From assembly GCA_021789595.1 (NCBI GenBank), contig JAJYJJ010000009.1:1274-65273 (forward strand): a stretch of DNA of 64,000 nucleotides. The letters run 5' to 3'. Source of the stretch: Nitrospirota bacterium (lineage in GTDB: Bacteria > Nitrospirota > Thermodesulfovibrionia > UBA6902 > JAJYJJ01). The notes under the pieces are model-generated. The model was not told the origin of the DNA. It saw only the letters and a list, made by a program, of their open reading frames with translations, and searched no databases. Below are positions 9,369 through 42,737 of the stretch, piece by piece; positions within the stretch are counted from its first letter, which is position 1; each line of letters begins with the position of its first letter. Both the position numbers and the translations under genes were made by a program.

Positions 9369-9380
9369 AATCCTGTTATT

Positions 9381-17628: not shown

Positions 17629-18715
17629 GTTCGCCTTTGTGATCCATGCAACCGACTTAAAACTGATGAGTATTGCGTTCGATGAACCAGGGATTATTAA
17701 AAAGAACAGGAGTCTTGTTGAGAAGGCCTTCTCATGGTTCCCTCCATTTAAATGTGCCCATATAGAAGGACTTAGATCGAGAACTGGCAAAACGAGCGAA
17801 GGAGATCTAATCTTCTGCACACTGACACCCGAGCAATTTCTGACAATGGAACCTGATTTTTTGCTTAATCGGATTGTGGAGGCCGGCAGATTGGCTATAG
17901 ACCTTGGAGCAAAGATTCTTGGGCTTGGTGCATATACAGCCTTTGTTGGAAGAAAAGGACTACAGGTAGCAAAGGCACTCGACATGCCAGTTACAACAGG
18001 CAGCAGTTATACGGCTGCAACTGCTGTGGAGGCAACCTTAAAGGCAGCTGTAGATACAGGGATGAGTCTCGATGAAATTAGAGCCTCAGTTGTGGGAGCA
18101 ACCGGGACAATAGGGAGTATATGTTCTCAACTTATTTCAAAAAAAATTCGAGCGATAAACCTTGTTGCGCGGAATCTACCGAGGTTAGAAAATCTATCCA
18201 AGAGAATTAAGGGGAAAAATGAAACGGCAAAGATAATTATCTCTACAGATATAAATTCAATCTCAGAAAGCGATATAGTTGTTTGTGTGACAAATGATCC
18301 TTCTGCCATTATAGATATCAATACCTTGAAATCAGGATCTGTGGTTTGTGATATTTCGATACCAAAGAATATCTCTGAAGAAAATGCCGCAGCAAGGAAA
18401 GACATCCTTGTGATAGATGGCGGCATCGTCAAGCTTCCTGGGGATGTAGAATTCAATTTCTATTTTGGCCTTCCACACAGTCATGCATATGCCTGTATGG
18501 CAGAGACCATGATTCTTGCCCTGGAAGAGCGATATGAATCTTACTCTATAGGTGGTAATATAACTATAGAAAAAGTCGAGGAGATAACCAGGCTTGCCTC
18601 AAAGCACGGATTCAGACTTGCAGAGCTAAAGAGCTTTGGCGTTGCAGTATCGGAAGAGAGGATGGAAAGCTTTAAATATTATTCAAGAGCAAAGGCAATA
18701 TGTGGTAGAATCTAA
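17618..18715 (+). CDS. acyl-ACP reductase-like NAD(P)-dependent oxidoreductase (cyanobacterial AAR family-like)
   Basis: 365 aa with Rossmann motif 'VVGATGTIGSICSQ'. C-terminal 'YACMAETMILALEERYESYSIGGNITIEKVEEITRLASKHGFRL' closely parallels the AAR C-terminus as I recall it ('FACFAESMLLEFE...GRNQITVDKMEQIG...KHGFRP'). Confidence 0.5.
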   Translation: MLSEFAFVIHATDLKLMSIAFDEPGIIKKNRSLVEKAFSWFPPFKCAHIEGLRSRTGKTSEGDLIFCTLTPEQFLTMEPDFLLNRIVEAGRLAIDLGAKILGLGAYTAFVGRKGLQVAKALDMPVTTGSSYTAATAVEATLKAAVDTGMSLDEIRASVVGATGTIGSICSQLISKKIRAINLVARNLPRLENLSKRIKGKNETAKIIISTDINSISESDIVVCVTNDPSAIIDINTLKSGSVVCDISIPKNISEENAAARKDILVIDGGIVKLPGDVEFNFYFGLPHSHAYACMAETMILALEERYESYSIGGNITIEKVEEITRLASKHGFRLAELKSFGVAVSEERMESFKYYSRAKAICGRI

Positions 18716-18718
18716 CCG

Positions 18719-20797
18719 ATGAATATCCATTCGATAGCATCACTTATAGCCTTCTTAGTGTGCACATCGCTGTCTGCCTTTGTATTTTTTAGAGGTAGGA
18801 GAAGCAATGTACACAATGGATTTATCATAGTTACTCAGCTGACAGGTATATGGTCTCTTTTCCCATTTCTGATACTTAACAATCTTATCCCTGTAAAGCA
18901 AATCCTTCTGGTGAGGGCTGTTTATTTAGCCGCCATATTCGACCCGACAGCCTTTCTTTATTTTTCCTTTGCCCTTGTTGGCATTGAGAACAAGAGGAGG
19001 CCCATTATAATGTTATCTTTACTTATATCATTGATACTGTCAGTATTTGGTTTTAGCCCATTATTTATAAAAGATATCGTTAGGTCGGGGAATCTTGCGT
19101 CCATTACGGTAGGGCCTTTGTACCATCTCTATATGCTTTTCTTTGTGTCTGTCTGCCTCTACACATTTTATAACTTTCTGAGTGCATATAAGGTCTCATA
19201 TGGAATATTAAGAAACCAGTTGGAATATGTATTTATAGGGTTTGGGATTGCTTATATTGGCGGATTGATGCATCTCGCAAATATATATTTTAAATATGAG
19301 CCATTTCCCCATGATTTCCTGATCATTCTTTTTGTTCTAATCATCTATTATGCAATCGTCAAATATCGTCTCATGGACATCGATATAGTCTTCAAAAAAG
19401 GTATCACTTATACAACACTGATAACCCTGACACTGCTTCCGGGTTTTGCCATCATCCTGCTCGCCGAGGACATCTTCTTTGGCCAAATAAATTACCCATT
19501 TTCCATTCTTATTCTCCTTGGACTTATAAGCGGAGCCTTTGCCTTTTATGCCATGCGGTTGAAGACTGAACGGGCTGTTGAAAAGAGGATATTCTCGAAG
19601 AAATATCGCTATCATGAAACCATAATGAGTTTCAGCAAGGATATTATCTCTATCCTCGACCTTGATGAACTTTTAAAGAGTCTTGATGCTGTGCTGACAA
19701 AGTCGCTTGACACAAGCGAGCTGTCAGTATTCTTGATAAAGGAGGGGAAAGACACCTATGGTCTTGCCCATTCAAGCGCCAAAAGGGATGAGCCAGCCAT
19801 TGTAGGGGATTTAGAAGACATGGGAAGGATATGGTTGAAGGAAGAGCTCACATGGAAAGAAGCCAACATAAAAAGGTTAATGGGCATGATTAATGCGGAA
19901 GTCTTCATACCGCTGAGGTGCAAGGGAAAGGCTATAGGATTTCTTACCCTCGGAGAAAAAAACAACGGTGGGTTTTATTCCTATGAGGAATTAAATATCC
20001 TATCCGCCCTTTCCAATCAGGCAGCCGTTGCCATTGACAATGCAAGGCTTATTAAGGAGCTTGACCGTTCAAAGGACCTCCTGCGCCGTTCAGAACAACT
20101 ATCCCTTATAGGAAATCTTGCAGTAAGAATAGCGCATGAGATAAGAAATCCGCTTGTAGCCATCGGGACATTCATCCAGATGTTGCCATATAAATACAGC
20201 GATCCTGAGTTCAGGGAGAATTTCTATAACATAGCGCTTGAGGAGGTTAACAGGATTAACGACCTCATAACCGAAATGCTCGACCTCACCAAAAATAAGG
20301 TGTCAAGGTTTCAGTCTGAAAATATACACAGGATTATTGAGAAGATGCTCCTGCTTGCATCCCCAAAGGCAAAAGAAAAGGGGATCAGTATCATCAAAAA
20401 ATACGACACGAGTATTCCAAATGTAATGCTAGATGTTGAAAAAATCAAACAGGTATTCCTCAACCTATTTTACAATGCTATTGAATTTAACAGGGAAGGC
20501 GGACAGATAGCGGTGGTTACAAGGCTCATAGATTCTAACAATAACCATTCGGTCCTGAGGGTTGATGTAAAAGATACAGGTATTGGAATACCTGCGGAAA
20601 ACATAGAGAGGATATTCGACCCTTATTTCACGACAAAACATAAAAGTCCTCTTTTTAAAGGTACAGGGCTCGGCCTGTTTATTTCTAATCAGTATATACT
20701 TGAACACATGGGATGGATTCAGGTAGAAAGCACAATAGATAAAGGTACCACATTTGCAGTGCATTTCCCTATAGAAAAAGGAAATGTGGGGGCTTGA
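18719..20797 (+). CDS. sensor histidine kinase (N-terminal ~7TM domain, GAF, HisKA, HATPase_c), no adjacent response regulator
   Basis: 692 aa with multiple N-terminal TM helices, GAF region 'IPLRCKGKAIGFLTLGEKNNGGFYSYEE', H-box 'HEIRNPL' and ATPase motifs 'DTGIGIP...GTGLGL'. Confidence 0.8.
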   Translation: MNIHSIASLIAFLVCTSLSAFVFFRGRRSNVHNGFIIVTQLTGIWSLFPFLILNNLIPVKQILLVRAVYLAAIFDPTAFLYFSFALVGIENKRRPIIMLSLLISLILSVFGFSPLFIKDIVRSGNLASITVGPLYHLYMLFFVSVCLYTFYNFLSAYKVSYGILRNQLEYVFIGFGIAYIGGLMHLANIYFKYEPFPHDFLIILFVLIIYYAIVKYRLMDIDIVFKKGITYTTLITLTLLPGFAIILLAEDIFFGQINYPFSILILLGLISGAFAFYAMRLKTERAVEKRIFSKKYRYHETIMSFSKDIISILDLDELLKSLDAVLTKSLDTSELSVFLIKEGKDTYGLAHSSAKRDEPAIVGDLEDMGRIWLKEELTWKEANIKRLMGMINAEVFIPLRCKGKAIGFLTLGEKNNGGFYSYEELNILSALSNQAAVAIDNARLIKELDRSKDLLRRSEQLSLIGNLAVRIAHEIRNPLVAIGTFIQMLPYKYSDPEFRENFYNIALEEVNRINDLITEMLDLTKNKVSRFQSENIHRIIEKMLLLASPKAKEKGISIIKKYDTSIPNVMLDVEKIKQVFLNLFYNAIEFNREGGQIAVVTRLIDSNNNHSVLRVDVKDTGIGIPAENIERIFDPYFTTKHKSPLFKGTGLGLFISNQYILEHMGWIQVESTIDKGTTFAVHFPIEKGNVGA

Positions 20798-20844
20798 CAT
20801 TGTATCGGCATGAGTGATATAAAGTGGTAAGAGGTTAGTAAGGC

Positions 20845-21111
20845 ATGTTCAGGCTGAAACTTATAATCTTTATACTGCTTGTGTTTCTGCTCTTTATATT
20901 TCCTGTCGGCTTTCTTTTTGCTGACAGAACTGGCGATATTATAGCTGCAGGGACAGCAGGCTATGTCCTTGGATGTGCCAGTGCCCCTCATTATTATGAC
21001 TATTACCCTGCGCCTTACTACTATGTCCCCCCTCCCCCACCTCCTGGTTACTATTACTATTATGCGCCGCCACCAGTGCCGCCACCTGGCATATATTATT
21101 ACGGTTATTAG
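20845..21111 (+). CDS. small membrane/secreted protein with Tyr/Pro-rich C-terminal tail
   Basis: 88 aa. Hydrophobic N-terminus 'LKLIIFILLVFLLFIFPVGFLFA', then 'HYYDYYPAPYYYVPPPPPPGYYYYYAPPPVPPPGIYYYGY'. The antisense ORF 20719..21117 has no such features. Confidence 0.35.
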   Translation: MFRLKLIIFILLVFLLFIFPVGFLFADRTGDIIAAGTAGYVLGCASAPHYYDYYPAPYYYVPPPPPPGYYYYYAPPPVPPPGIYYYGY

Positions 21112-21176
21112 CCGCATAACCCTAAAAGGGTACGAGTGATAACCTATCTTGTATATTACACTGAGGAGATGATCTT

Positions 21177-22022
21177 ATGGTTATGTTGAACCTTGATTTA
21201 AAGCCTGAGGATTTTACCATTCCTCCCCATGACAACATGGAAGACTTTCACGGTGACTTAAATAATCCTGACATAGTTATTTTCCTTAACGGCAACCAGT
21301 GGATGATAATGAAAGAGTTGCTTGCCGCTTTTCAGCAGGAACATCCAGAAATCAAGAATATCTTTTATGAGACTATCCCGCCTGGAATACTCTTAAAGCA
21401 GATTCGTCACGGCGCCCTGAAGGTTGGGGAGCTGGTTATCAGTGTGCCGCCTGATATCTATACAGCAGGCAGAGAGGAGATGGACTCTCTGTTAAACGAT
21501 GGCTTTATCAAAGAGTATGTTCCTTACGCGAAAAACCATCTGGCTATCATGGTGCCCGAAGGGAACCCGAAGGAGATCACGGGCTGGCGCGATTTAGGGC
21601 GTCCGGGAATCCGGGTGGTTATGCCCAATCCGGTAACGGAAGGTGTCGGTCGTCTGGCACTCAAGGCCATGGAAAAAGCAGAAGGACGTGAACTTGTGGA
21701 GACCGTTATGGGGGAAAAGTTGACCGATGGAGAGACCTTCCTTACCCATATCCACCATCGCCAGACTCTCCTTCTTCTCATGGATGGAACGGCAGATGCC
21801 GGGCCGGTATGGATCAGCGAAGCGCTTTATCAAAAGAGGATAGGAAGCCCTCTGGACTATGTGCCCATCCCGGAAGGACAGAATCAGAGCGGCACATATT
21901 TCATCGCCATCGTAGAGAAGACCGTGCAGCACAGGGTCGCGGCAGAGGCATTTCTTGACTTCATGAGGAGCAGGCAGGCTCAGGATATATATGCCGGCTA
22001 CGGCTTTAGCAGCGCGAATTAA
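21177..22022 (+). CDS. ModA/WtpA-like periplasmic-binding-fold protein (molybdate/tungstate type) lacking a signal peptide
   Basis: 281 aa resembling the ModA N-lobe ('IVIFLNGNQWMIMKELLAAFQQ...ETIPPGILLKQIRHGA'). No N-terminal signal peptide. GC content is locally high. Confidence 0.45.
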   Translation: MVMLNLDLKPEDFTIPPHDNMEDFHGDLNNPDIVIFLNGNQWMIMKELLAAFQQEHPEIKNIFYETIPPGILLKQIRHGALKVGELVISVPPDIYTAGREEMDSLLNDGFIKEYVPYAKNHLAIMVPEGNPKEITGWRDLGRPGIRVVMPNPVTEGVGRLALKAMEKAEGRELVETVMGEKLTDGETFLTHIHHRQTLLLLMDGTADAGPVWISEALYQKRIGSPLDYVPIPEGQNQSGTYFIAIVEKTVQHRVAAEAFLDFMRSRQAQDIYAGYGFSSAN

Positions 22023-22101
22023 ATTTTCAATTACTACTTGCAAAGCCTGTTATGCGAGGGAAATTGTATGAGGGCGCATTCAAATCGTCAGGAGGATATG
22101 G

Positions 22102-22335
22102 ATGAGACCCGATTCACCGTTTTATTTACGGAGTTTTGAAGTGCTTAAAAAATCAGCTTTATTCTCAAGACTCGATGAGGATGTCCTCAAGGAAATGTTT
22201 CTGATTTTCAGGCATCAAGAATGGGAGAAAAAACAGGTTGTTATGGAGCCCGCTCAAACAGTCGAGCAGGGGTTATTTAGAGATCAAAGACCTGCATGCC
22301 CTGATAAGAAAAATAGAAGAACACCTGCATTTTAA
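22102..22335 (+). pseudogene. Crp/Fnr-family cNMP-binding domain fragment (N-terminal ~45 aa only)
   Basis: 'LRSFEVLKKSALFSRLDEDVLKEMFLIFRHQEWEKKQVV' is a typical Crp effector-domain start. The rest of the ORF is unrelated read-through with no HTH. Confidence 0.4.
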
Positions 22336-22486
22336 TAAAGATAGAGATAGAAACAATGAGAAAGGATAAGGTATGTAACTTAAGTAGTAGAAGTGATCGA
22401 GAAAAACAGGTATGCTTTAAATAGGTTTCCCAAACGGCTCATTGGGCCTGACAAAAAAGTTAACCATTAAAAAGCAGGAGATGCAC

Positions 22487-22600
22487 CATGTCAAAGGGAA
22501 AAATGTAGCTGTTGCTATATTCAATACTCACGGTGAGGCCGAAAATGCCGTGTGCGTCTGGCTCAGAGGCGAAAGGAGGTGATGGCAGTCCTCGTCGAAA
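22487..22600 (+). pseudogene. 5' fragment of a paralog of the gene at 23629 (YflT-like stress protein), interrupted by a stop
   Basis: DNA encodes 'MSKGK-*-VAVAIFNTHGEAENAV' versus 'MSEKNLAVAIFNTHTEAEDAV' at 23629. The nucleotide-level similarity is seen directly. Confidence 0.4.
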
Positions 22601-22653
22601 AATAGAGTAAGCAGCAGGTGTCTCAGATGTTAATTCAACCCAAGGAGGAAGCT

Positions 22654-22992
22654 ATGTTCAAGAAAATCGTAGTAGTTGGAATTGCCGTGCTCATGGTTAG
22701 CGGTGCAGCGTTTGCTGCGGACAAGAGTAACAAGATCGCCAAGAGTGACAAGAAGACCCAACATCATCTTTCGAAGATGAAATGCGAAGATTTTCTCATG
22801 CTTGATGAGACGATCAGGCCCAAAGTCGTTTATTATGGGGTCGCATACGCACGCGGCGGCAAGCCGGAAGGCGCCGTGATCGACATCGAAAGAACAGAAA
22901 AGATCACGCCTATAATCGTTGATGAATGCAAGAAAGAGCCAAAAGCGTCCTTCTGGCAGAAACTCAAGGCGGAAGTCAAGAAAATCTTCTAA
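22654..22992 (+). CDS. HdeA/HdeB-family periplasmic acid-stress chaperone
   Basis: Signal peptide 'MFKKIVVVGIAVLMVSGAAFA'. 'CEDFLMLDETIRPKVVYYGVAYARGGKPEGAVIDIERTEKITPIIVDEC' matches the E. coli HdeA core ('CEDFLAVDESFQPTAV...KPEDAVLDV...VTPAIVQAC') including both Cys. The ATG at 22654 is preceded by AAGGAGG. Confidence 0.6.
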   Translation: MFKKIVVVGIAVLMVSGAAFAADKSNKIAKSDKKTQHHLSKMKCEDFLMLDETIRPKVVYYGVAYARGGKPEGAVIDIERTEKITPIIVDECKKEPKASFWQKLKAEVKKIF

Positions 22993-23026
22993 ACTCTCAA
23001 TGTAAAGAAAAAAAGGAGCACACCCT

Positions 23027-23518
23027 ATGAAACCATATCAACTGATTGCGGCCAGCGCGCTGGCACTTATGGTCCTGGCCGGTTGCACCACCACCGGCAT
23101 GGGGCGCGGAGAAATGACCGACAAAGGAAAACCCACCGAGCCCGTTCTGTTCAGTTGGAAAAGCACGGACGGGGGGCTGTCCGGCTCGATGGTGGCCACA
23201 CTGCCCGACGCGACCTACACAGGTAAGTTCTTTCAGATTACCCGTCAGACGCAGCGCGAAACCCTTGCTCCGCTGTGGAACGGCTGGAACGCAGGATGGT
23301 ACGACTGGCCGTACTGGAGCCAGCCTTATCCGGCCACGTACGATGCGACGCAGTTCATTACGTACTACAGCGGCAAAGTGGTTGCCAATCTTGAAACCAA
23401 CGGCGGCCAGCGCATGCGCTGCCGCTTCCATCTTGCCAATCCGACAAGCGGTATGGCTGATGGCGGCCAAGGCGAGTGTCAACTCTCCGGCGGTCGAATC
23501 ATTAACGCAACATTTTAA
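23027..23518 (+). CDS. lipoprotein of unknown function (Trp/Tyr-rich)
   Basis: Lipobox 'LAGC' after a signal peptide. 163 aa in GC-rich DNA. No recognisable domain. Confidence 0.5.
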   Translation: MKPYQLIAASALALMVLAGCTTTGMGRGEMTDKGKPTEPVLFSWKSTDGGLSGSMVATLPDATYTGKFFQITRQTQRETLAPLWNGWNAGWYDWPYWSQPYPATYDATQFITYYSGKVVANLETNGGQRMRCRFHLANPTSGMADGGQGECQLSGGRIINATF

Positions 23519-23628
23519 TCCTTAATTGATAACAAGAAAGAAGGAGGTGGTCAACGACGACGTAGTCAATCGACATATAGTCACGCCATAAATAATAGCA
23601 GTAAAATCACAAAAAAAGGAGGTACACT

Positions 23629-24144
23629 ATGTCAGAGAAAAATTTGGCTGTAGCTATTTTCAACACCCACACTGAGGCTGAGGATGCTGTCAAGGAACTC
23701 CAGAAATCCGGCTTCGATATGAAGAAGCTGTCCATCGTAGGCAAGGACTATCATTCTGAAGAGCATGTGGTAGGCTATTACAATACGGGTGACCGTGTCA
23801 AATACTGGGGAAAGTTGGGGGCCTTCTGGGGTGGATTATGGGGATTCCTTTTCGGTTCCGCGTTCTTTTTCATTCCCGGGATTGGCCCCATCGTTGTAGG
23901 CGGTCCGTTGGTGTCGTGGATCATTGGCGCGCTTGAAGGTGCCGCTATTGTGGGTGGAATGAGCGCCGTTGGAGCAGCGTTATACGGTATCGGCATTCCA
24001 AAAGACAGCGTCCTCAAATATGAGACTTCTCTGAAGGCGAACAAGTTCCTGTTGGTTGCGCACGGGACGGGGGAAGAAGCGGAAAAGGCAAAAAAGATTT
24101 TAGAGACGACTAATGCAGTTGAGACAGCAATTCATCACGCTTAA
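23629..24144 (+). CDS. general-stress-protein 17M (YflT)-like N-domain fused to a glycine-zipper membrane hairpin
   Basis: 171 aa. N-terminal 'LAVAIFNTHTEAEDAVKELQKSGFDMKKLSIVGKD', then 'GAFWGGLWGFLFGSAFFFIPGIGPIVVGGPLVSWIIGALEGAAIVGG'. Confidence 0.45.
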   Translation: MSEKNLAVAIFNTHTEAEDAVKELQKSGFDMKKLSIVGKDYHSEEHVVGYYNTGDRVKYWGKLGAFWGGLWGFLFGSAFFFIPGIGPIVVGGPLVSWIIGALEGAAIVGGMSAVGAALYGIGIPKDSVLKYETSLKANKFLLVAHGTGEEAEKAKKILETTNAVETAIHHA

Positions 24145-24159
24145 AAACGGAGGTATTGA

Positions 24160-24193
24160 AATACGAACAGGCTGTTTAAAAACCCTGTTGTGT
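24160..24193. promoter_or_regulatory. perfect 12-bp inverted repeat gtgtcattgcga-N10-tcgcaatgacac between the stress gene and the cytochrome operon
   Basis: Seen directly in sequence. No downstream U-tract, so it is either an operator or an RNA hairpin. Confidence 0.35.
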
Positions 24194-24242
24194 CATTGCG
24201 AGGAGCAATTTTCGCAATGACACAATCTATGAGGAGAACATT

Positions 24243-25118
24243 ATGGAAAAAAATAAGGTTATATTTGCCCTTGGGATAATTATCATTTTTGCCATTGTAG
24301 GCGCCGGCATCTCCATCGTATTCGGCAGATTTGTCAGCTTCAGCAACATCTCCAGCGTTGTTGCGGCCTCGGAAAAAACCGATGTAGCCGTACAGACGGG
24401 TATGGCAATCACAGATGCAGGCGGCGCAATCGCCTTTAACCCGCCCTCTGTCCAGGATGCGCCGGCAAACATAAAGGACGCGGTCATGCTCGGTCACAAC
24501 ATCCTGACGGATACCCGGAAATATGCGGGTCAATACGTTGGGAACAAGCTCGACTGTTCAAACTGTCATTTCAAGGGGGGCATGACCCAAGGCGGGAAAA
24601 ACGGAGGCCTCTCGCTTGTGGGAGTGGGTGCAACCTATCCCCAGTACAAGAAGAGACAGAACTATTCCGTGGACCTCGTGACACGAACAAATGACTGTTT
24701 TGAAAGGAGCATGAACGGCAAACCCTTGCCCGCTGACAGCCGGGAAATGATAGCTATAGTCACATATTATCAGTGGATATCAAAAGGACTGCCCATATAT
24801 GCCGATATCCCCTGGTTGGGGGTGAAACACCTCAAGAGTGGTCATAAGCCGGATGAGGTAAAGGGGAAGCAGGTCTTTGCAGACAAATGCGCCATGTGCC
24901 ACGGCAATAACGGCCAGGGAACCCCGGCGGCGCCGCCTCTGTGGGGAAAGGATTCCTTTAACGATGGCGCGGGTATGCATAAGCTGGAAAACCTTGCAGC
25001 CTTTGCCTATAAAAATATGCCAAGGGGAAATCCTGACCTTACCCCTGAAGATGCCCTGGATGTAGCAGCGTTTGTTACAACCCAGCCAAGACCTCATTTT
25101 GTGCCCAGAAAGGGATAG
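24243..25118 (+). CDS. membrane-anchored dihaem cytochrome c, TsdA/SoxA-like (thiosulfate dehydrogenase family candidate)
   Basis: N-terminal TM anchor and two CxxCH motifs (CSNCH, CAMCH). 'YVGNKLDCSNCH' and a free Cys in 'TNDCFERSMNG' resemble the TsdA haem-1 region with its Cys ligand (recalled from memory). Confidence 0.5.
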   Translation: MEKNKVIFALGIIIIFAIVGAGISIVFGRFVSFSNISSVVAASEKTDVAVQTGMAITDAGGAIAFNPPSVQDAPANIKDAVMLGHNILTDTRKYAGQYVGNKLDCSNCHFKGGMTQGGKNGGLSLVGVGATYPQYKKRQNYSVDLVTRTNDCFERSMNGKPLPADSREMIAIVTYYQWISKGLPIYADIPWLGVKHLKSGHKPDEVKGKQVFADKCAMCHGNNGQGTPAAPPLWGKDSFNDGAGMHKLENLAAFAYKNMPRGNPDLTPEDALDVAAFVTTQPRPHFVPRKG

Positions 25119-25126
25119 GAGGATTT

Positions 25127-26482
25127 ATGCAGTTTCCCATCTTTCAGGTACCGCATTTAGGCAACGGCATGACAATCGCACTGGATGCAGTGCTGCATGT
25201 GATCATAAGCCACGGACTGGCTATCGGCGCAATAACGCTCATCGTAATAAGTGAATACATGGGATTTAAGAAGTCTTCCCAGGACTGGGAAAATTTTGCA
25301 AAGGACTTTCTGAAATTCACCATTATAATCACCACAGGTGTCGGAGCGGTAACGGGAGTCGGCATATGGCTTATTACCAGCGCCCTTTCACCCCTTGGCA
25401 TAGGCTCTATGCTTCGTGTCTTTTTCTGGCCATGGTTTATTGAATGGATGATATTCACCAGTGAGGTGATTTTTCTTCTCCTCTACTACTTTACCTGGGA
25501 TAAATGGACAAGTGAGAGGAAGAAGCAGCATATTTATCTGGGAGCCGGCTATACCATTTTCGCTCTTTCCTCTGCCTTTCTGATTACAGGTATACTGGGT
25601 TTTATGCTTACTTCTGATGGCTGGCCCTGGGATAAAAGTATCTTATCTGCTTTTTTTAATCCAAGTTACCTACCTCAACTGCTATTGAGGATAGGTATTG
25701 CTTTAGCGCTTGGTACCGTATTCTCTGTGGCATTTCTTCTTTTTACCAGAAGGGAAAGTGGCTTCCGCAAAGAAGCCCTGAACTTTTTCGGAAAGGTTGC
25801 CCTGCTTTCATTATCGGCAACGGTTATATTCACCTGGTGGTATTTCAGCGTCGTCCCTTCATCGTTCAAAACCCACGCTAAATTTGCTGCCCTGACTTCC
25901 CACTTTTCCCAGCAACCTGAAATTTTCTGGATTGCGAATATTACCGCTGCTTTCCTGTTGTTCGTGTTAGCCCTGTCTGCCATGAGAGGTTCCACCCTTC
26001 TGGTTAAAATTCTCATTCTCCCTGCAATTTTGATATCCATGGGTTTTGTAAGTGAATTTGAACGTATAAGGGAGTTCATCAGAGGTCCTTACCTCATGCC
26101 GGGTTACATGTATGCTAATCAGGTATTGTTGAAGGAGACCCCCGTATTGGACAAAGAGGGGTTATTGAAGAATGCATACTGGTATAATTCAATCACAAAG
26201 AGACCTGATGTAGTGAATCAGGGCGCATACCTCTTTGCACAGAACTGTTCAGCATGCCATACCATCGGAGGAATTAATGACATTGCAAAGAGGGTGCAGG
26301 GAAGGACAGAGGATGGAATCTTTGTCATCCTCGGCCATACCCATGATATGGTTCCCTTCATGCCTCCTTTTTCAGGGACAGAGCAGGAGCGGAGGGTAAT
26401 GGCAAGCTTTCTCTATAAGCTATCAACGGGAAGGCTCAAAATGGGTGCACCTTCCCGTTTTACACCAGGGAGGTGGGAATGA
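25127..26482 (+). CDS. CydA-like (cytochrome bd subunit I N-terminal half-like) membrane domain fused to a C-terminal monohaem cytochrome c
   Basis: TM1 His 'DAVLHVIISHGLAIG', 'GVGAVTGVGIW' and 'FTSEVIFLLLYYFTWDKW' parallel CydA 'MYHFLFVPLTLG', 'GVATGLTMEF' and 'FLESTFVGLFFFGWDRL'. The C-terminal 'CSACH...MPPF' is a class I cytochrome c domain. Confidence 0.5.
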   Translation: MQFPIFQVPHLGNGMTIALDAVLHVIISHGLAIGAITLIVISEYMGFKKSSQDWENFAKDFLKFTIIITTGVGAVTGVGIWLITSALSPLGIGSMLRVFFWPWFIEWMIFTSEVIFLLLYYFTWDKWTSERKKQHIYLGAGYTIFALSSAFLITGILGFMLTSDGWPWDKSILSAFFNPSYLPQLLLRIGIALALGTVFSVAFLLFTRRESGFRKEALNFFGKVALLSLSATVIFTWWYFSVVPSSFKTHAKFAALTSHFSQQPEIFWIANITAAFLLFVLALSAMRGSTLLVKILILPAILISMGFVSEFERIREFIRGPYLMPGYMYANQVLLKETPVLDKEGLLKNAYWYNSITKRPDVVNQGAYLFAQNCSACHTIGGINDIAKRVQGRTEDGIFVILGHTHDMVPFMPPFSGTEQERRVMASFLYKLSTGRLKMGAPSRFTPGRWE

Positions 26483-28071
26483 ATAGCCTCTTCGACATAA
26501 TGCTCTCAAAACCGCTTCCGGATGCGTGGCTCCGTGGTCTCCTTTTTGCCTCCTTCACCCTTCATATGGTATTTGTTCTCTTAACTTTAGGGACTGCCAT
26601 CCTTTCTGTTTACTATTTTATTGATGCCCGATGGACCGGTAAACCGGAAGAGTTGCGTATGGATAAGAGGATATTAAAGACCTTCATGGCCCACAAGAGC
26701 CTGGCAGTGGTGCTGGGAGTTGCACCATTGCTTCTGATCCAGATCGGCTTTACCGTCCCCTTCTTTACCGGGGTTAATCTACTTGCGCCTTTATGGATGT
26801 TAGTCATTGTATTTCTGGTAGTGGCATTTTTGTCCTTTGATGCCCTGGGGCACAAAATGTATGTGCACCCTTATTTACATCTGGTTTTTGGCATCATTGC
26901 CCTCCTCCTTCTCCTTGCAGTTCCTGCAGTATTCGTCGGGATTCTGGTGGTGGCAGAAAATCCGGAAAAGTGGTTAACAATAATCAGTAGTGGCTATAAG
27001 CTAAGGGGTTCCTTAGCCTTACACTGGCTTTTCAGATACCTGCATGTCCTCGGGGCTGCGGTTGTATTCGGTGCAGCATTTCATTATTTCTTCTCAGCAA
27101 AAGATGAAACCGAAAAGAGGTCACTGCTTAAATGGATCATTGCCGGGATATTGCTTCAGATCATCCTCGGCACAACGCTCTACAGTTCTTTATTAGAAAA
27201 ACCTGATTACATCACCAATGCTTCATTATTTATTGGCGTCGTCGGTGTCGCATTATTATTGTGGATAATTTATCTCAATGTGGGTAAAAAGAGCACTTTA
27301 GATATCAGAACAGTACTACCTCTCTTAATGCTCATACTTATACCAATGCTTTTAGCAAGACAATTTATTCAGTATAAGAAGTTTCTGCCCCTTGAAAAAC
27401 AGTTACAGGCAAACGCTCAAGCTTACCAAAAAGAATTGCAGCCCTATTCCCAGGAAGCCCTTAATAAATATAAAGACGATTTAAAAGTGGTCTATGACAA
27501 TGGCGAGACCATATATTCAAAGAGCTGTGCCTTCTGTCACGGAGAAAAGGCGGATGGTATCGGACCAGAAGCAAAAAACCTTACAATCCCTCCGGAAGAC
27601 ATATCGGCTATAAGAACCACAAGAACGCATCTTCATAAGATACTAGTCGAAGGCGTTTCGGGCTCTGCCATGCCTTACTTTACTTTTTTTGATAGGTATA
27701 AAATAGACAGCTTGATCGATTATCTGGATAAAAAATATCATGTTCTAAGTTTACCTGAACCTCTTCCTGTTAAAATCTCTGATACAGCATTGCAACAGGC
27801 CCAGAAAATTTATAATGAAACCTGCTCCGGGTGTCATGGAATGGATGGCAGAGGTTCAGCGCTTTCAAAAGGTTTTCAGCCCCAGCCTCCGGACTTTACC
27901 GTTTACAGCTTATCGCCTAAGAGGGCCTTTGATGTCATAACAAAAGGTTATCCAGGGACTGCGATGCCATCATTTAGCAACCTGCCGGAAGAGGTCCGAT
28001 GGAGCCTGGTAAAAATTATTAATGACAAAAGAATCCCTGAACTGACAGGAAGGGGAAAGATAAGAAAATGA
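26473..28071 (+). CDS. second CydA-like membrane domain fused to a C-terminal CcoP-like dihaem cytochrome c
   Basis: TM1 'FTLHMVFVLLTLGTAIL' (cf. CydA 'YHFLFVPLTLGMAFL') and 'APLWML...FLSFDALGHKMY'. C-terminus has 'CAFCH...GSAMP' and 'CSGCH...GTAMPSF' haem sites. The start overlaps the previous stop by 10 bp. Confidence 0.5.
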   Translation: MGMNSLFDIMLSKPLPDAWLRGLLFASFTLHMVFVLLTLGTAILSVYYFIDARWTGKPEELRMDKRILKTFMAHKSLAVVLGVAPLLLIQIGFTVPFFTGVNLLAPLWMLVIVFLVVAFLSFDALGHKMYVHPYLHLVFGIIALLLLLAVPAVFVGILVVAENPEKWLTIISSGYKLRGSLALHWLFRYLHVLGAAVVFGAAFHYFFSAKDETEKRSLLKWIIAGILLQIILGTTLYSSLLEKPDYITNASLFIGVVGVALLLWIIYLNVGKKSTLDIRTVLPLLMLILIPMLLARQFIQYKKFLPLEKQLQANAQAYQKELQPYSQEALNKYKDDLKVVYDNGETIYSKSCAFCHGEKADGIGPEAKNLTIPPEDISAIRTTRTHLHKILVEGVSGSAMPYFTFFDRYKIDSLIDYLDKKYHVLSLPEPLPVKISDTALQQAQKIYNETCSGCHGMDGRGSALSKGFQPQPPDFTVYSLSPKRAFDVITKGYPGTAMPSFSNLPEEVRWSLVKIINDKRIPELTGRGKIRK

Positions 28072-29516
28072 AGAGCAGAAAGATACTTTCAATCGTTCAA
28101 ATGAACGACAGCCATGCCTATTTTGATTTACACCAGGAGATGTTCTGGCAGGGCGACCACGCGGTATACCGTCCCGCCGGAGGTTACGCGCGCATCGCCA
28201 CGATTGTAAAACAGATTCGGGCTGAGAGCCAGGGACGCATTCTCTTTTGCGACTGCGGCGATACCCTCCATGGCACCTATCCTGCCCTGGACACACAGGG
28301 ACAGGCTTTGGTCCCTGTTTTGAATTCATTGGGGCTTGATGCCATGACAGCTCACTGGGAATTTGCTTACGGTCCAAAGGTATTTAACCAGCGGGTTGCT
28401 GAACTGAATTATCCGATGCTGGCAAACAATGTCTATGATAAAGAGACAAAGAAGCCGGTCTATCGGTCGTATGCCGTAAAAGAGATTGGCGGATTACGGA
28501 TCGGCCTTGTGGGGATAGCCTCAAACATTGTGGACAAGACCATGCCGCCTTCTTACAGCGAAGGCATATTCTTTACCCTGGGCAGGGACGAACTTCCGCC
28601 AATTGTCGATACGTTACGCACTCAGGAAAAGGCAGACTTAATCGTTTTGGTCTCGCACCTCGGGTTCCCTCAGGAGATGAAGCTTTTGTCCGAGGTGCAC
28701 GGCATAGATATCTGTCTCAGCGGCCATACGCATAACCGCCTGTACAAGGCGGTTCTCAATGGGAAAACTATTGTTATACAGTCAGGCTGCCATGGTTCTT
28801 TTTTGGGTCGCCTTGACCTGGAGGTGGAGGATAGACAAATCGTCGTTTACCGGCACCGGTTGATTGAGGTTGAAGCAGCAATACAACCTGACCCCGCAGT
28901 AGATGACCTGGTAAGACAGGCGCTCGCACCCTATAAGAATGACCTCTCAGAGGTTGTCGGTGAAACTGCCACAGCACTCAACCGAGGAACAACCCTGGAG
29001 GCCACAATGGACAATTTTCTCCTTCAGGCTTTACTCGAAAGCACCGGTGCGCAATTAGCATTTTCGAATGGCTGGCGCTACGGCGCACCGATAGTTCCCG
29101 GGAAGATAACCTTGAATGACCTTTACAACATTATTCCCATGAATCCACCTGTCTCAACAGTAGAGTTGGCAGGAGAGGAAATCAAGGTAATGTTGGAGGA
29201 GAACCTCGAAAGGACGTTTTCATGCGATCCGTACCAGCAGATGGGAGGGTATGTCAAGCGCTGTATCGGTCTTAATGTATACTTTAAGATAGAGAACCCT
29301 CCAGGACACCGTATTCAAAAACTATTTGCAGGCAATGAAGAGGTACAGCCCGGCCGGCACTACACAGCGGCATTCGTCACGCCGCAAGGGGTCCCTCAGA
29401 AATACGGCCGCAATCGCGAAAACCGGTCGGAACGAACCATAGATGCGCTGCGAAAATATCTGGTGGTGCATCGCCCCCTTCATGCAGAACTCAGAGGCAC
29501 ATTTGTGGCGGTATAA
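28068..29516 (+). CDS. 5'-nucleotidase/SoxB-family dimetal phosphoesterase (no signal peptide)
   Basis: Calcineurin-like motifs 'MNDSHAYFD', 'CGDTLHG', 'GHTHNRL' and a 5'-nucleotidase C-domain. Overlaps the upstream gene by 4 bp. Confidence 0.6.
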   Translation: MKSRKILSIVQMNDSHAYFDLHQEMFWQGDHAVYRPAGGYARIATIVKQIRAESQGRILFCDCGDTLHGTYPALDTQGQALVPVLNSLGLDAMTAHWEFAYGPKVFNQRVAELNYPMLANNVYDKETKKPVYRSYAVKEIGGLRIGLVGIASNIVDKTMPPSYSEGIFFTLGRDELPPIVDTLRTQEKADLIVLVSHLGFPQEMKLLSEVHGIDICLSGHTHNRLYKAVLNGKTIVIQSGCHGSFLGRLDLEVEDRQIVVYRHRLIEVEAAIQPDPAVDDLVRQALAPYKNDLSEVVGETATALNRGTTLEATMDNFLLQALLESTGAQLAFSNGWRYGAPIVPGKITLNDLYNIIPMNPPVSTVELAGEEIKVMLEENLERTFSCDPYQQMGGYVKRCIGLNVYFKIENPPGHRIQKLFAGNEEVQPGRHYTAAFVTPQGVPQKYGRNRENRSERTIDALRKYLVVHRPLHAELRGTFVAV

Positions 29517-30369: not shown

Positions 30370-30831
30370 ATGGAAGATATCAAACGTATACTTGTCGTAA
30401 GCAGGATGACCAAATACTGCCGGAAGGCTGTTCATTATGGCGTTTCTCTATCTAAAAAATATGGAGCAGAACTTTTTGTCATCCATGTGATTCATAACCC
30501 TTTCGGACTTGAGGGATGGAACCTGCCGATACCTTCTCTGGAAGAAGAATACAAGAGAATTCTCCTGGAAGAGAAAAAGCAGCTGGATATAATTATAAAT
30601 CTGGAGAAAGGAAAAGGCATGTCTGTAAAAGAATTGATTAGAGAAGGAGAGCCTACCGGAGAAATTTTAAAAGCCGTCAAAGAAGAGAATATAGATATCG
30701 TCATCATGCTTGCCCATGAGGAAGGCCATTTGGAACACTTTCTTTTTGGGCACAGCAATGAAGAAATTATCCGGAAGATGCCATGTTCGATTCTCATGGT
30801 GAAGAAGGAGCCTGAGCCTGTGGCATTCTGA
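30370..30831 (+). CDS. universal stress protein (UspA family)
   Basis: 153 aa with 'ILVVSRMTKYCRKAVHYGVSLSKKYGAELFVIHVI' and C-terminal 'MPCSILMVK'. Confidence 0.75.
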   Translation: MEDIKRILVVSRMTKYCRKAVHYGVSLSKKYGAELFVIHVIHNPFGLEGWNLPIPSLEEEYKRILLEEKKQLDIIINLEKGKGMSVKELIREGEPTGEILKAVKEENIDIVIMLAHEEGHLEHFLFGHSNEEIIRKMPCSILMVKKEPEPVAF

Positions 30832-30854
30832 ATTAAGAATCCCGTCGCATTTGA

Positions 30855-30986
30855 AGAGAAAAAAGGGTCTTCGCCGATGTTGCTGAAAAAGAGGGATTTC
30901 CCGAAATTGCCAGACGCTTAAGAGCAATCGCCAGAGCAGAAGAACATCACGAAGAAAGATACAAAAAATTATTAAAGGAGGACGTA
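30855..30986 (+). pseudogene. rubrerythrin ferritin-like-domain remnant (44 codons, no start, no rubredoxin domain)
   Basis: Encodes '[38 protein letters not shown]'. This resembles the Desulfovibrio rubrerythrin segment 'FAKIAREEGYEEIARVFASIAVAEEFHEKRF' (recalled from memory). It sits wedged between the two usp genes. Confidence 0.4.
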
Positions 30987-31435
30987 TGATTTCAAAGATT
31001 TTTGTGCCAACAGACGGTTCAGAGACATCTCAAAAGGCAGCCAGGTATGCAATTGACCTTGCAAAACAGTTGAATGCCTCAGTAATTATCATGAGCGTTA
31101 TCGATAAACGTTCACTTATAGAGCAGACAGTTCCTGCAGAGGCAACTTCAATGCATATAATAGAGCCTATTGAGGATTATCTGCGTGAGGCCGCCCAGAG
31201 GTATGCTGGAGAGGTAAAAAAACTGTGTGATAAAAATGGTGTCCAGTCAAAGACTATCATAACGACAGGATATCCTGTTGAGGATATTGTGAAAGAGGCT
31301 GAGAGGTCGAAGGCAAATCTTATTATTATGGGTTCCCATGGTAGAAGTGCTTTAGCAGCCGCAGTTCTTGGTAGTGTTACATTTGGAGTTATTCATAAAG
31401 ACACAAAAATCCCTGTTCTTGTGGTAAGAAGGTGA
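30986..31435 (+). CDS. universal stress protein (UspA family)
   Basis: 149 aa with '[35 protein letters not shown]' and '[21 protein letters not shown]...IPVLVV'. Confidence 0.75.
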
Positions 31436-32111: not shown

Positions 32112-34229
32112 GTGGATAACATGAAAGACAGATTCCCCTATCTCCCGGATAGAATATCGGGTCTTGGTGAATTAGCCTACAATCTCTGGTGGAGCTGGCA
32201 ACCTTCAGTGAGGATGCTCTTTAAGATGTTAAACCGTCCGGCATGGAAAGAGAGTGTCCATAATCCAGTAAAGATGTTAAGAGAACTCCCCAAAGACATT
32301 GTGGAATCAGTTGCAAATGACCCGGAGTATTTACACCACTATGATGCGGTGCTCTCCAGGTTTCGGAAAGAGATGTCTTCAAAAGGGGGCTGGTTTTCTG
32401 AAAATATTGCTGATCCTGAATATTTACCCATTGCCTATTTCTCGGCCGAGTACGGGCTGCACCATTCCCTCCCCTTTTATGCAGGTGGATTGGGCTTCCT
32501 GGCAGGCGACCATATAAAGGAATACAGCGATCTTGGAGCGCCTTTAGTGGCTGTGGGCTTTATGTATCCTGAAGGATATTTGCGCCAGAAAATTCGTGCA
32601 GACGGCTGGCAGGAGAGCGTGGATGAAGTCCTGGACAGGGACGCTGCTCCGATCACAAGGGTTCTCAATGACAAAGGAGAACAGCTTGTGGTCAAGGTAC
32701 CTTTTATCGATCCTCCTGTTTATGTGGCTGTATGGAAAGTGATGGTAGGCCGTGTGCCTCTCTATTTAATAGATACTGATATAGAAATAAATGATCCATG
32801 GAACAGGGGGATATCTGCCCACCTCTATATCGGAGATATCGAACAGCGCCTGCGTCAGGAGATTGTTCTGGGTATCGGCGGAAGTGAGGTCTTGAACACC
32901 CTCGGAATCAAACACTCTGTACTCCATCTGAATGAAGGACATCCGGCCTTTGCCATTTTGGAACGGATAAGGGAAAGGGTACAAGGAGGAATGGGTTTTG
33001 ATAAAGCAATGGAACAGGTCAGGGCGACTACGGTTTTTACCACCCACACGCCTGTGCCTGCAGGGCATGATGTCTTCCCTTTTCATCTGATGGATAAATA
33101 TTTCAGCCATTATTATCCCCTTCTCGGTCTCAATAGAGATGCTTTTCTTCAGATTGGAACTCATCCAGAGAATCCCGCAGCCGGTTTTAACATGACCGCT
33201 TTCGCCCTCAGGATGTCAGCTTATCGTAATGGTGTCAGCAAAAAACATGGAGCGGTTGCTCGCCGTATGTGGCAAGCACTCTGGCCTGAAAGGCAAGAAG
33301 AAAATATCCCCATTGATTTTATAACCAACGGAGTCCATGTCCCCACATGGATAGAACCAAAAATGGAGCTTCTTCTTAACAGATACCTCGGCCCAAACTG
33401 GCTGGAGGATCACGACAACCCTGTAATCTGGGAATTGATAGACGATATTCCTGATAAGGAATTATGGCAGGTCCACTACTGGCTGAAGATGAAACTGATT
33501 AATGTCATCCGGGAGCAGGCACGCCGGAGATGGGTTGAGGACAAGATTTCCCCCACCAATGTTGTGGCTGGGGGGACATTGCTGGATCCATCGGCTTTAA
33601 CTATAGGTTTTGCCCGCCGCTTTGCTACCTATAAAAGGGCGGATTTAATCTTTCAGGATATGGAACGGTTGAAAAGACTCCTTAATGACCGGTGGCGGCC
33701 TCTGCAGATCATATTTGCCGGTAAGGCCCATCCTGCGGATGACCCAGGGAAACGAATCCTTCAGCGGATATTTAATTTTGCCCATGACCCTGATCTGAGA
33801 GGAAGAATTGCCTTTGTGGAGGACTATGGGGAACAACTGGCACAATACATGGTCCACGGAGTGGATGTATGGCTCAACAATCCCTTGCCCCCATTAGAGG
33901 CCAGCGGGACCAGCGGGATGAAGGCATCCCTGAATGGTGTTCCTCACCTGAGCATTCTTGATGGATGGTGGATTGAGGGTTTCAATGGCAAGAATGGATG
34001 GGCATTTGAGGGAAGTGGTGACGATGGTAAAGATGCTGAGGCGATTTATGATATTCTTGAAAATAATGTGATTCCCCTGTATTACAAACTGGATGACTAT
34101 GGCATTCCCCGCGAATGGGTGAAGATTATGAAGGAGGCGATTAAGAGCAACGCACCATTATTCAGTGCCAGAAGAATGGTAAAGGAGTATGTTCAGAAAT
34201 TTTATCAGAGCGCATTGAAATCAGCTTAG
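32112..34229 (+). CDS. glgP: alpha-glucan phosphorylase (GT35, bacterial 'DUF3417' type)
   Basis: 705 aa with 'WWSWQP', 'YFSAEYGL', 'GGLGFLAGDH' and pyridoxal-phosphate region 'EASGTSGMKASLNG'. Confidence 0.85.
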   Translation: MDNMKDRFPYLPDRISGLGELAYNLWWSWQPSVRMLFKMLNRPAWKESVHNPVKMLRELPKDIVESVANDPEYLHHYDAVLSRFRKEMSSKGGWFSENIADPEYLPIAYFSAEYGLHHSLPFYAGGLGFLAGDHIKEYSDLGAPLVAVGFMYPEGYLRQKIRADGWQESVDEVLDRDAAPITRVLNDKGEQLVVKVPFIDPPVYVAVWKVMVGRVPLYLIDTDIEINDPWNRGISAHLYIGDIEQRLRQEIVLGIGGSEVLNTLGIKHSVLHLNEGHPAFAILERIRERVQGGMGFDKAMEQVRATTVFTTHTPVPAGHDVFPFHLMDKYFSHYYPLLGLNRDAFLQIGTHPENPAAGFNMTAFALRMSAYRNGVSKKHGAVARRMWQALWPERQEENIPIDFITNGVHVPTWIEPKMELLLNRYLGPNWLEDHDNPVIWELIDDIPDKELWQVHYWLKMKLINVIREQARRRWVEDKISPTNVVAGGTLLDPSALTIGFARRFATYKRADLIFQDMERLKRLLNDRWRPLQIIFAGKAHPADDPGKRILQRIFNFAHDPDLRGRIAFVEDYGEQLAQYMVHGVDVWLNNPLPPLEASGTSGMKASLNGVPHLSILDGWWIEGFNGKNGWAFEGSGDDGKDAEAIYDILENNVIPLYYKLDDYGIPREWVKIMKEAIKSNAPLFSARRMVKEYVQKFYQSALKSA

Positions 34230-34289
34230 AAACCTTGCATAGGGCTGTTGAATGCTACTGCCAGGCTCATAGATCAAAGGAGGCTACAA

Positions 34290-42662: not shown

Positions 42663-42737
42663 TGGAGCCGGCGGGGAGGATCGAACTCCCGACCTGCTGA
42701 TTACGAATCAGCTGCTCTACCTCTGAGCTACGCCGGC
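42663..42737 (-). tRNA. tRNA-Thr (anticodon CGU), CCA encoded
   Basis: The reverse complement folds as a cloverleaf: acceptor GCCGGCG/CGCCGGC, D-arm GCTC..GAGC, anticodon arm GCTGA-TTCGTAA-TCAGC (anticodon CGT), T-arm GGGAG-TTCGATC-CTCCC, then CCA. Confidence 0.85.

Follow-up and report, generated by a model that had tools for sequence, protein, structure and literature searches.

The interval between a histidine kinase gene and a cytochrome gene module on contig JAJYJJ010000009.1 of a Nitrospirota bacterium (assembly GCA_021789595.1) raises the question of whether it was acquired as a single island. The stretch of DNA analysed here, 64,000 nt in length and referred to below as the window, carries at nt 21150 – 24150 a block that the first-pass annotation had described as a foreign, GC-rich (55 – 60%) acid and stress island with recombination scars at its edges. 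The block holds the genes of a binding protein (SBP281), an HdeA homologue, a lipoprotein and a YflT-type membrane protein, together with the remnants of a Crp/Fnr-family regulator gene and of a second YflT-type gene, and is followed by tsdA, the first gene of the cytochrome module. As argued below, the block is probably a mosaic, in which a stress cassette and two further genes, now pseudogenes, were acquired by a Thermodesulfovibrionales-like Nitrospirota genome, came to lie between SBP281 and tsdA, and were then pruned by deletion. As such the region is an ordinary accessory one: its cassette is reasonably well supported as horizontally acquired, and its two pseudogenes are clean deletions. 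The gene calls of the first-pass annotation were accurate, while its estimate of G+C content, its boundaries and its edge-scar reading were not.

The three intact genes of the cassette lie on the forward strand in the order HdeA (nt 22654 – 22992), lipoprotein (nt 23027 – 23518) and YflT (nt 23629 – 24144), with spacers of only 34 and 110 nt, and the first of them has a strong ribosome-binding site (RBS). HdeA is an acid-activated periplasmic chaperone. The homologue in the window (112 aa) has a hydrophobic N-terminus with a signal peptide, matches PF06411 at 75.2 bits (cutoff 22), and aligns over 74 residues to E. coli HdeA (1bg8; E 2.9e-12), C44 and C92 matching both cysteines, as had been noticed at first reading. 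It scores 84.4 bits with the NCBIfam HdeA equivalog NF007576 (cutoff 85) and, judged by its sequence, is a member of the HdeA family. Literature searches combining HdeA with Nitrospirae or with YflT returned nothing relevant. The lipoprotein, also correctly recognised as rich in Trp and Tyr (6 and 7, respectively, among 144 mature residues), has the lipobox LAGC and belongs to an unnamed conserved family, an 8-stranded beta-barrel with a Trp/Tyr/Pro-rich loop and two invariant cysteines. It matched no Pfam or NCBIfam model, and Foldseek gave no significant match, but 328 homologues were found at 55 – 88% identity, with 44 invariant positions. The third protein, YflT171, likewise has the features attributed to it, that is, a YflT domain (PF11181, residues 8 – 74; 38.0 bits, cutoff 26.2) and a glycine-zipper hairpin with four GxxxG motifs in a hydrophobic segment (residues about 63 – 122), followed by a short C-terminal domain.

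Two gene remnants, both on the forward strand, precede the cassette. The first is a Crp/Fnr-family regulator pseudogene (nt 22102 – 22369), in which about 55 N-terminal codons (nt 22102 – 22266) are joined out of frame to about 30 C-terminal codons (nt 22271 – 22369). When the annotated 77-aa ORF (open reading frame) was searched exhaustively against 1.84 billion representatives, it led to P0183, a protein of 247 aa with cNMP_binding and HTH_Crp_2 domains. By tblastn, residues 8 – 58 of P0183 align to nt 22114 – 22266 (49% identity, E 2e-14), and residues 221 – 239 align, in a different frame, to nt 22271 – 22327 (63% identity, E 2e-6). As both ends of P0183 are matched, in two frames, the gene has kept its two ends and lost about 162 internal codons, those of the cNMP-binding and HTH domains, and the 77-aa ORF as annotated is a Crp N-terminus that reads on into out-of-frame C-terminal DNA. 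The stump has no match in Pfam or NCBIfam, and a phmmer search of PDB with the 77-aa ORF gave a chance hit only; with nothing left but the equivalents of residues 8 – 58 and 221 – 239, and no Pfam match, it is a pseudogene. The N-terminal fragment reported earlier is therefore real, and the C-terminal end is preserved as well. The genomic contexts of the Crp-like proteins P0182, P0183 and P0184 contain no cassette. Other metagenome ORFs of 62 – 76 aa (L107, nt 301 – 489; L108, nt 787 – 975, P0182; and P0185) match only the Crp-like N-terminus (MRPDSPFY...), a hint that this subfamily has been truncated repeatedly or that a short form exists.

The second remnant (nt 22469 – 22582) consists of the RBS region and about 22 codons of a YflT-type gene. 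Its translation is identical to the full copy at 15 of 18 residues (E 2e-8), with a local alignment score of 74 against a maximum of 35 for the six-frame background of the window, and its DNA is about 77% identical to the 5' end of that copy, RBS region included. The stop-interrupted duplication described in the first-pass annotation is thus genuine: after the ancestral ATG at nt 22488, a 2-nt insertion shifts the frame and leads to a stop after six codons. Comparison with locus L095 (GCA_052915985.1), where a full-length YflT gene lies directly 5' of HdeA, shows that nt 22380 – 23000 are colinear with the YflT-HdeA region of that genome. The only large difference is a gap of about 545 bp, which begins at about codon 23 of YflT and ends some 90 nt 3' of the stop codon. 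Non-coding homology with the relative continues 5' of the stump to about nt 22346, and the stump occupies the position of YflT in both L050 and L095. The colinearity with L095 and the preserved ends of the Crp gene indicate that both fragments are internal deletions and not edge junctions, so that the view of them as recombination scars at the margins has to be abandoned; both are located within the stretch and amount to plain deletions that spared gene ends or flanks. In L095 itself (nt 9300 – 9815), the upstream YflT is interrupted by an in-frame TAG in place of the conserved Trp codon of the window (GAF*GG vs GAFWGG); either the upstream copy was inactivated here too, in an independent event, or the TAG is a sequencing error.

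The left boundary of the inserted stretch follows from SBP281 (nt 21177 – 22022, forward strand), an oxyanion-type protein of the periplasmic-binding fold (Pfam SBP_bac_11, 164 bits). It had been described as a signal-less ModA-like protein. The lack of a signal is correct, there being no hydrophobic segment at the N-terminus (maximum KD19 -0.09), but the assignment to ModA was rejected, as the score with TIGR01256 (56.5) is under the equivalog cutoff of 62.5, the nearest PDB relatives are the sulfate-binding SubI/Sbp, and the genomic partner is TsdA. The latter is encoded at nt 24243 – 25118 (forward strand) and is a diheme thiosulfate dehydrogenase homologue, matching PDB 4wq7/4wqc (E ~1e-43) and PF21342 (SoxA-TsdA). 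In a survey of plasmid and secondary-replicon records with full-length SBP281 homologues (42 – 46% identity), at least 11 of 21 carried a TsdA-like gene on the same strand within 3 kb, among them Hymenobacter (2), Burkholderia stagnalis, B. arboris, Methylobacterium, Komagataeibacter (2), Bradyrhizobium betae and Paraburkholderia fungorum (2). The two genes abut in B. stagnalis, and in Gluconobacter the SBP281 homologue adjoins DoxD. Given this linkage, SBP281 and tsdA are partner genes of a thiosulfate or sulfur-oxyanion module and SBP281 is not part of the stress cassette, which places the left boundary at about nt 22023 instead of 21150. Loss of a signal peptide by SBP281 was considered and rejected, since the Hymenobacter homologue is also without one. 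Plasmids of Bacteroidota, Alpha- and Betaproteobacteria (L110, L111, L114, L115) also combine SBP281-type proteins, some of them signal-less, with TsdA-like cytochromes, DsrE, YeiH-type sulfate exporters or DoxD, and the combination has the appearance of a mobile set of genes for handling thiosulfate.

The right edge of the inserted stretch is marked by an inverted repeat (nt 24188 – 24225; TTGTGTCATTGCGA / TCGCAATGACACAA) that lies 3' of the YflT stop and 5' of the tsdA start; its 14-bp arms match perfectly and enclose a loop of 10 nt. It has no second copy in the window, lacks a T-run, was not called as an intrinsic terminator, and may act as an operator or form a hairpin in RNA. Promoter and terminator scans gave counts at or under shuffle expectation, and no Fnr-type boxes were found near the block.

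Base composition, computed directly, shows a modest and patchy rise in place of a uniform island. The block has a G+C content of 48.3%, as against 44.2% for the whole window, and 67 of 1220 overlapping 3-kb windows equal or exceed it, the peak being at nt 32451. Values of 56 – 60% in 200-nt windows are confined to nt 23000 – 23500, inside the lipoprotein gene; the adjacent cytochrome c gene reaches 57%. By gene, the G+C content is 49.9% for SBP281, 39.7% for the Crp stump, 46.9% for HdeA, 58.3% for the lipoprotein (z 3.8; GC3, the G+C content at third codon positions, 67.7%, z 3.25) and 49.6% for the full-length YflT, while outside the block it is 51.4% for tsdA, 50.9% for the gene at nt 28068 – 29516 and 53.8% for that at nt 34248 – 35408. 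Codon usage was compared by Karlin's B with that of all other genes, with resampled synonymous codons as the null. The lipoprotein gene (z 6.4) is the sole strong outlier of the block; SBP281 (2.1), HdeA (1.4) and YflT (2.0) fall inside the normal spread of the window, where unrelated genes reach z values of 3 – 11. The unit as a whole is not compositionally distinct from its host, and the lipoprotein gene alone deviates. The most atypical gene of the window is a different one, an M50 peptidase-CBS gene (nt 34248 – 35408; GC3 63%, codon z 11.1), next to a DUF3417 glucan phosphorylase gene (nt 32112 – 34229; codon z 5.0).

These values bear directly on the original proposal, taken here to mean that nt 21150 – 24150 arrived as a unit, in a single transfer out of a proteobacterium, and settled between the kinase and the cytochrome operon. 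Its GC3 values (57, 59, 68 and 55% for the four block genes, against a window mean of 46%) are in its favour, and so is the mostly proteobacterial labelling of the lipoprotein, YflT and HdeA relatives. We nevertheless regard it as improbable: the mean G+C content is equalled or exceeded elsewhere in the window, codon usage stands out in a single gene, the linkage of SBP281 is with tsdA and not with the stress genes, the raised G+C content runs on into the cytochrome genes, and the gene fragments are internal deletions. No direct repeats flank the block, no tRNA gene lies beside it (the only one in the window is at nt 42663), and a domain scan of the neighbouring genes found no integrase or transposase. 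In addition, the cytochrome module itself accompanies the cassette in Dissulfurimicrobium and in L093 (see below). The claim of foreign acquisition survives for HdeA-lipoprotein-YflT, which is probably foreign, but not for the whole block as one island.

The evidence for transfer of the cassette comes chiefly from its relatives. A scan of one genome per species with the lipoprotein, in a set that did not include the host genome itself, gave 80 loci, mostly in Burkholderiales (Rhodoferax, Polaromonas, Acidovorax, Variovorax). Relatives at 73 – 82% identity are labelled Proteobacteria, Myxococcales, delta- and gammaproteobacteria, and those at 79 – 82% come from metagenome-assembled genomes (MAGs) labelled Dissulfurimicrobium, Myxococcales and Proteobacteria. 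The full-length YflT is 68% identical to the Dissulfurimicrobium copy and 53 – 56% identical to Burkholderiales copies located 5' of the lipoprotein gene. The highly conserved ClpC (nt 42953 – 45391), for comparison, is 78 – 85% identical to its nearest relatives, labelled Nitrospirae, Nitrospirota and Thermodesulfovibrionales, and so does not exceed 85% within the phylum; these ClpC matches are also the basis on which the host was placed. More distant lipoprotein homologues (49 – 50% identity) are carried by sphingomonad conjugative megaplasmids, amid ClpB, TrxC, Hsp20, glutaredoxin, BON, Dps, Usp (universal stress protein) and DnaJ-like genes; a 216-aa Gly-rich protein encoded near the homologue on a Sphingomonas plasmid has no detectable relation to YflT171. 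From identities alone, similarity is incongruent with host phylogeny, the family being mainly one of Burkholderiales and plasmids. Gene order around the cassette is different in every relative examined. A cross-phylum identity that was judged to lie above that of ClpC within the phylum, carriage on plasmids and a different gene order in each relative together make a horizontal origin of the HdeA-lipoprotein-YflT cassette likely. A metagenome scan based on the kinase found only relatives of at most 55% identity with other neighbours, and no close relative lacking the block.

Vertical inheritance of a native region, its patchiness being due to amino-acid content (the lipoprotein is rich in Gly, Ala, Pro, Trp and Arg) and to expression-linked codon choice, would account for part of the compositional data. 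The G+C content at second codon positions (GC2) of the lipoprotein gene is 0.53, so that its high G+C content is partly forced, clearly native genes such as ClpC (3.8) reach codon z values of 3 – 4, and the closest HdeA and lipoprotein relatives (86 – 88% identity) are on similarly low-GC contigs (L093, 46%). Amino-acid content does not, however, explain a GC3 of 0.68. The lipoprotein gene has 52 – 65% G+C whatever the host, exceeding low-GC hosts by 6 – 14 points and falling below high-GC ones (58 vs 44% in the window, 56 vs 46% in L093, 52 vs 47% in L017, 62 vs 71% in L003). The identity of 79 – 82% is to proteins from genomes of other phyla with 52 – 71% G+C, and together with the shifting gene order and the family members on conjugative plasmids it makes a native origin unlikely.

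To see in what company the lipoprotein occurs, the fetched loci were searched with the window proteins over 6 kb on each side. At 26 of 80 loci a YflT, p216, HdeA or (at one locus) Usp homologue lies beside it on the same strand. Here p216 denotes a conserved, secreted, helical protein of 216 aa (L006, nt 7281 – 7931; L093, nt 406 – 1056; and many Burkholderiales loci), which has a signal peptide, is rich in Lys, Glu and Ala, and is without a Pfam model; at no fewer than 15 loci it is encoded immediately 5' of the lipoprotein, in the slot held by HdeA in the window. The commonest arrangements are YflT-p216-lipoprotein (8), p216-lipoprotein (7) and YflT-lipoprotein (6), and there are also YflT-HdeA-lipoprotein (L050, Rhodoferax) and HdeA-YflT-lipoprotein (L041). 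In the Dissulfurimicrobium MAGs (L006/7), the same three-gene cytochrome module as in the window (74, 69 and 62% identity, the first value being that of TsdA) is followed by a multiheme cytochrome, p216, the lipoprotein (79%) and YflT (68%), and in L093 the end of the module is followed by p216, the lipoprotein, HdeA (86%) and Usp. L010 and L013 have YflT-lipoprotein-P-type ATPase, and directly 5' of it a DUF3417 phosphorylase 39% identical to that of the window. With components shared across so many loci, the window cassette is one permutation of a recurrent module made up of a YflT-type membrane protein, a periplasmic helper and a barrel lipoprotein.

The proximity to cytochrome genes admits another view of the full-length YflT, namely that it is an ActD-like small membrane subunit of a downstream cytochrome complex (TsdA and two polytopic cytochrome c fusions) and not a stress protein. 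Its gene is 98 nt 5' of tsdA, in Dissulfurimicrobium it is again no more than 4 kb from this module, and the protein matches PF11821 (ActD) over residues 7 – 165, albeit at 26.6 bits, marginally over the cutoff of 25.7. This identity is doubtful, as the YflT domain scores higher, the Burkholderiales homologues pair with the lipoprotein and p216 and have no cytochrome module within the 6 kb searched on each side, no ActB/ActC-type genes (the core of alternative complex III, ACIII) are among the neighbours scanned, and the YflT gene 5' of HdeA is dispensable or degraded in two lineages. A chimeric assembly or binning error, by which the GC-rich lipoprotein segment would stem from another organism of the metagenome (the source is a MAG, and the G+C content jumps sharply at nt 23000 – 23500), is very improbable indeed, because nt 17701 – 28000 are identical base for base to the NCBI MAG contig, the sequence from nt 22591 on, HdeA to the third cytochrome gene, is identical to an independent Logan contig (run SRR13170411) with the same gene order HdeA-lipoprotein-YflT-tsdA, and L093 has an equally GC-rich lipoprotein gene on a contig of 46% G+C.

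Several observations weigh against the mosaic and the module that it is thought to contain. No partner is detectable at 54 of the 80 lipoprotein loci, HdeA is the helper at only a handful, and the three proteins may be loosely co-located parts instead of one machine. The HdeA homologue is 0.6 bit short of the equivalog cutoff, and the compositional signal of foreign origin is strong for one gene only. The insertion between SBP281 and tsdA is deduced from distant replicons in which the interval itself varies (0 – 3 kb), and the taxon labels of the MAGs are those of their submitters.

On the mosaic reading, SBP281 and tsdA would be thiosulfate-module partners that are normally adjacent or close, and the interval of about nt 22023 – 24242 would be a horizontally acquired stretch that once read Crp/Fnr-YflT-HdeA-lipoprotein, perhaps with a further YflT at its end. 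After its arrival, two deletions of about 0.5 kb each would have inactivated the regulator gene and the YflT copy 5' of HdeA, the latter presumably lost as redundant with the downstream one, leaving HdeA-lipoprotein-YflT intact. The two YflT copies could go back either to a duplication or to the fusion of two arrangements. The cassette would be one version of an envelope module that recurs, is mobile and has three parts, namely an inner-membrane YflT-type protein, a secreted helper (HdeA or p216) and a small barrel lipoprotein. HdeA would be exported and hold unfolding periplasmic proteins at low pH; the lipoprotein would be anchored in a membrane, facing the periplasm, where its barrel and Trp-rich loop may bind a ligand or a partner; and the YflT protein would span the inner membrane, its soluble domain facing the cytoplasm. 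The three may jointly shield the envelope, and in this organism the c-type cytochromes that serve, in the periplasm, a sulfur metabolism which generates acid. The Crp-type regulator, probably once the controller of the unit, is dead, and the cassette is probably read with neighbouring genes. What the sequences show is the anatomy, homology, synteny, recurrence and composition; the joint role in envelope or acid protection, the stress signal and the sequence of events are inferred. A stronger version, according to which YflT, the helper (HdeA or p216) and the lipoprotein form one undescribed mobile trans-envelope protection or sensing module of Burkholderiales and sulfur-cycling anaerobes, which beside TsdA modules shields cytochromes from self-made acid, is at present a tentative possibility. 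If it were true, the module would have been recruited next to TsdA in thiosulfate-using or sulfur-disproportionating bacteria.

The surroundings of the block contain further genes of sulfur metabolism and stress. Directly 3' of tsdA, in overlapping or abutting frames (nt 25127 – 28071), are two polytopic membrane proteins of 451 and 532 aa with C-terminal cytochrome c domains, which matched no named family besides those domains and are conserved with tsdA in Dissulfurimicrobium at the 69 and 62% identity given above. They are followed by a SoxB-like phosphoesterase gene (nt 28068 – 29516), a DUF302 gene and two Usp genes (nt 30370 – 31435), the latter 6 – 7 kb past the cassette. One of these (nt 30986 – 31435) is 63% identical to the Usp beside HdeA in L093, which suggests that stress and sulfur genes may share a larger neighbourhood (~21 – 31.5 kb). 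Between the kinase and SBP281 is an 88-aa ORF (nt 20845 – 21111, forward strand) with a strongly hydrophobic N-terminus and a tail of Tyr and Pro only (YYYVPPPPPPGYYYYYAPPPVPPPGIYYYGY). It is annotated as a gene in the NCBI MAG, and has neither a Pfam or NCBIfam match nor a homologue in any fetched locus.

The main value of the current analysis is corrective, in that the G+C content judged by eye was too high by about 10 points and the boundary was misplaced. Beyond this, the two clean deletion pseudogenes illustrate, on a small scale, how a regulator can be lost and a paralogue pruned once a gene cluster has been rearranged. The uncharacterised, highly conserved lipoprotein family, without a Pfam model and repeatedly found beside YflT-type membrane proteins and periplasmic helpers, is a modest lead for which Rhodoferax and Acidovorax are tractable carriers. 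A second modest lead is the signal-less sulfate/thiosulfate-type binding protein consistently tied to TsdA across phyla, which could be relevant to substrate sensing or handling by thiosulfate dehydrogenase modules.

Compared with known systems, the cassette shares with the hdeAB chaperones of the E. coli acid fitness island a protein of the same family with a signal peptide and the conserved disulfide pair, and by this likeness the window homologue is presumably a periplasmic holdase at low pH. It differs in that Pfam scans of the genes around it found no hdeB, hdeD or gadE, and in that the host is a Nitrospirota anaerobe where HdeA is placed beside a lipoprotein and a YflT-type membrane protein. 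The lipoprotein can be set beside the neisserial 8-stranded barrels (the NHBA C-domain and TbpB/HpuA/hemophilin), to which it has a sequence identity of only 9 – 14%; unlike these surface lipoproteins it is a single barrel without a handle domain, has a 45-residue Trp-rich insertion, and lacks Slam or TonB-receptor neighbours. A further comparison is with the ClpB/Hsp20/Trx/Dps/Usp clusters of sphingomonad megaplasmids, in which a lipoprotein homologue is embedded and which presumably resemble the enterobacterial heat-resistance locus, but the window cassette has no adjoining cytoplasmic chaperone or redox genes, only the two distant Usp genes. YflT of Bacillus subtilis (general stress protein 17M), the namesake of PF11181, is a small, soluble, sigma-B-dependent general stress protein; YflT171 carries its domain at the N-terminus, but is anchored to the membrane by a Gly-zipper hairpin and belongs to a Gram-negative envelope cassette. 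Finally, the first cytochrome of the window is a clear homologue of TsdA from the TsdA/TsdB loci of Allochromatium vinosum, although here it is accompanied by two polytopic cytochrome c membrane proteins and a SoxB-like phosphoesterase instead of TsdB, and by a binding protein without a signal peptide. In having a binding protein of the SBP281 type near a TsdA-like gene, the window resembles many plasmids.

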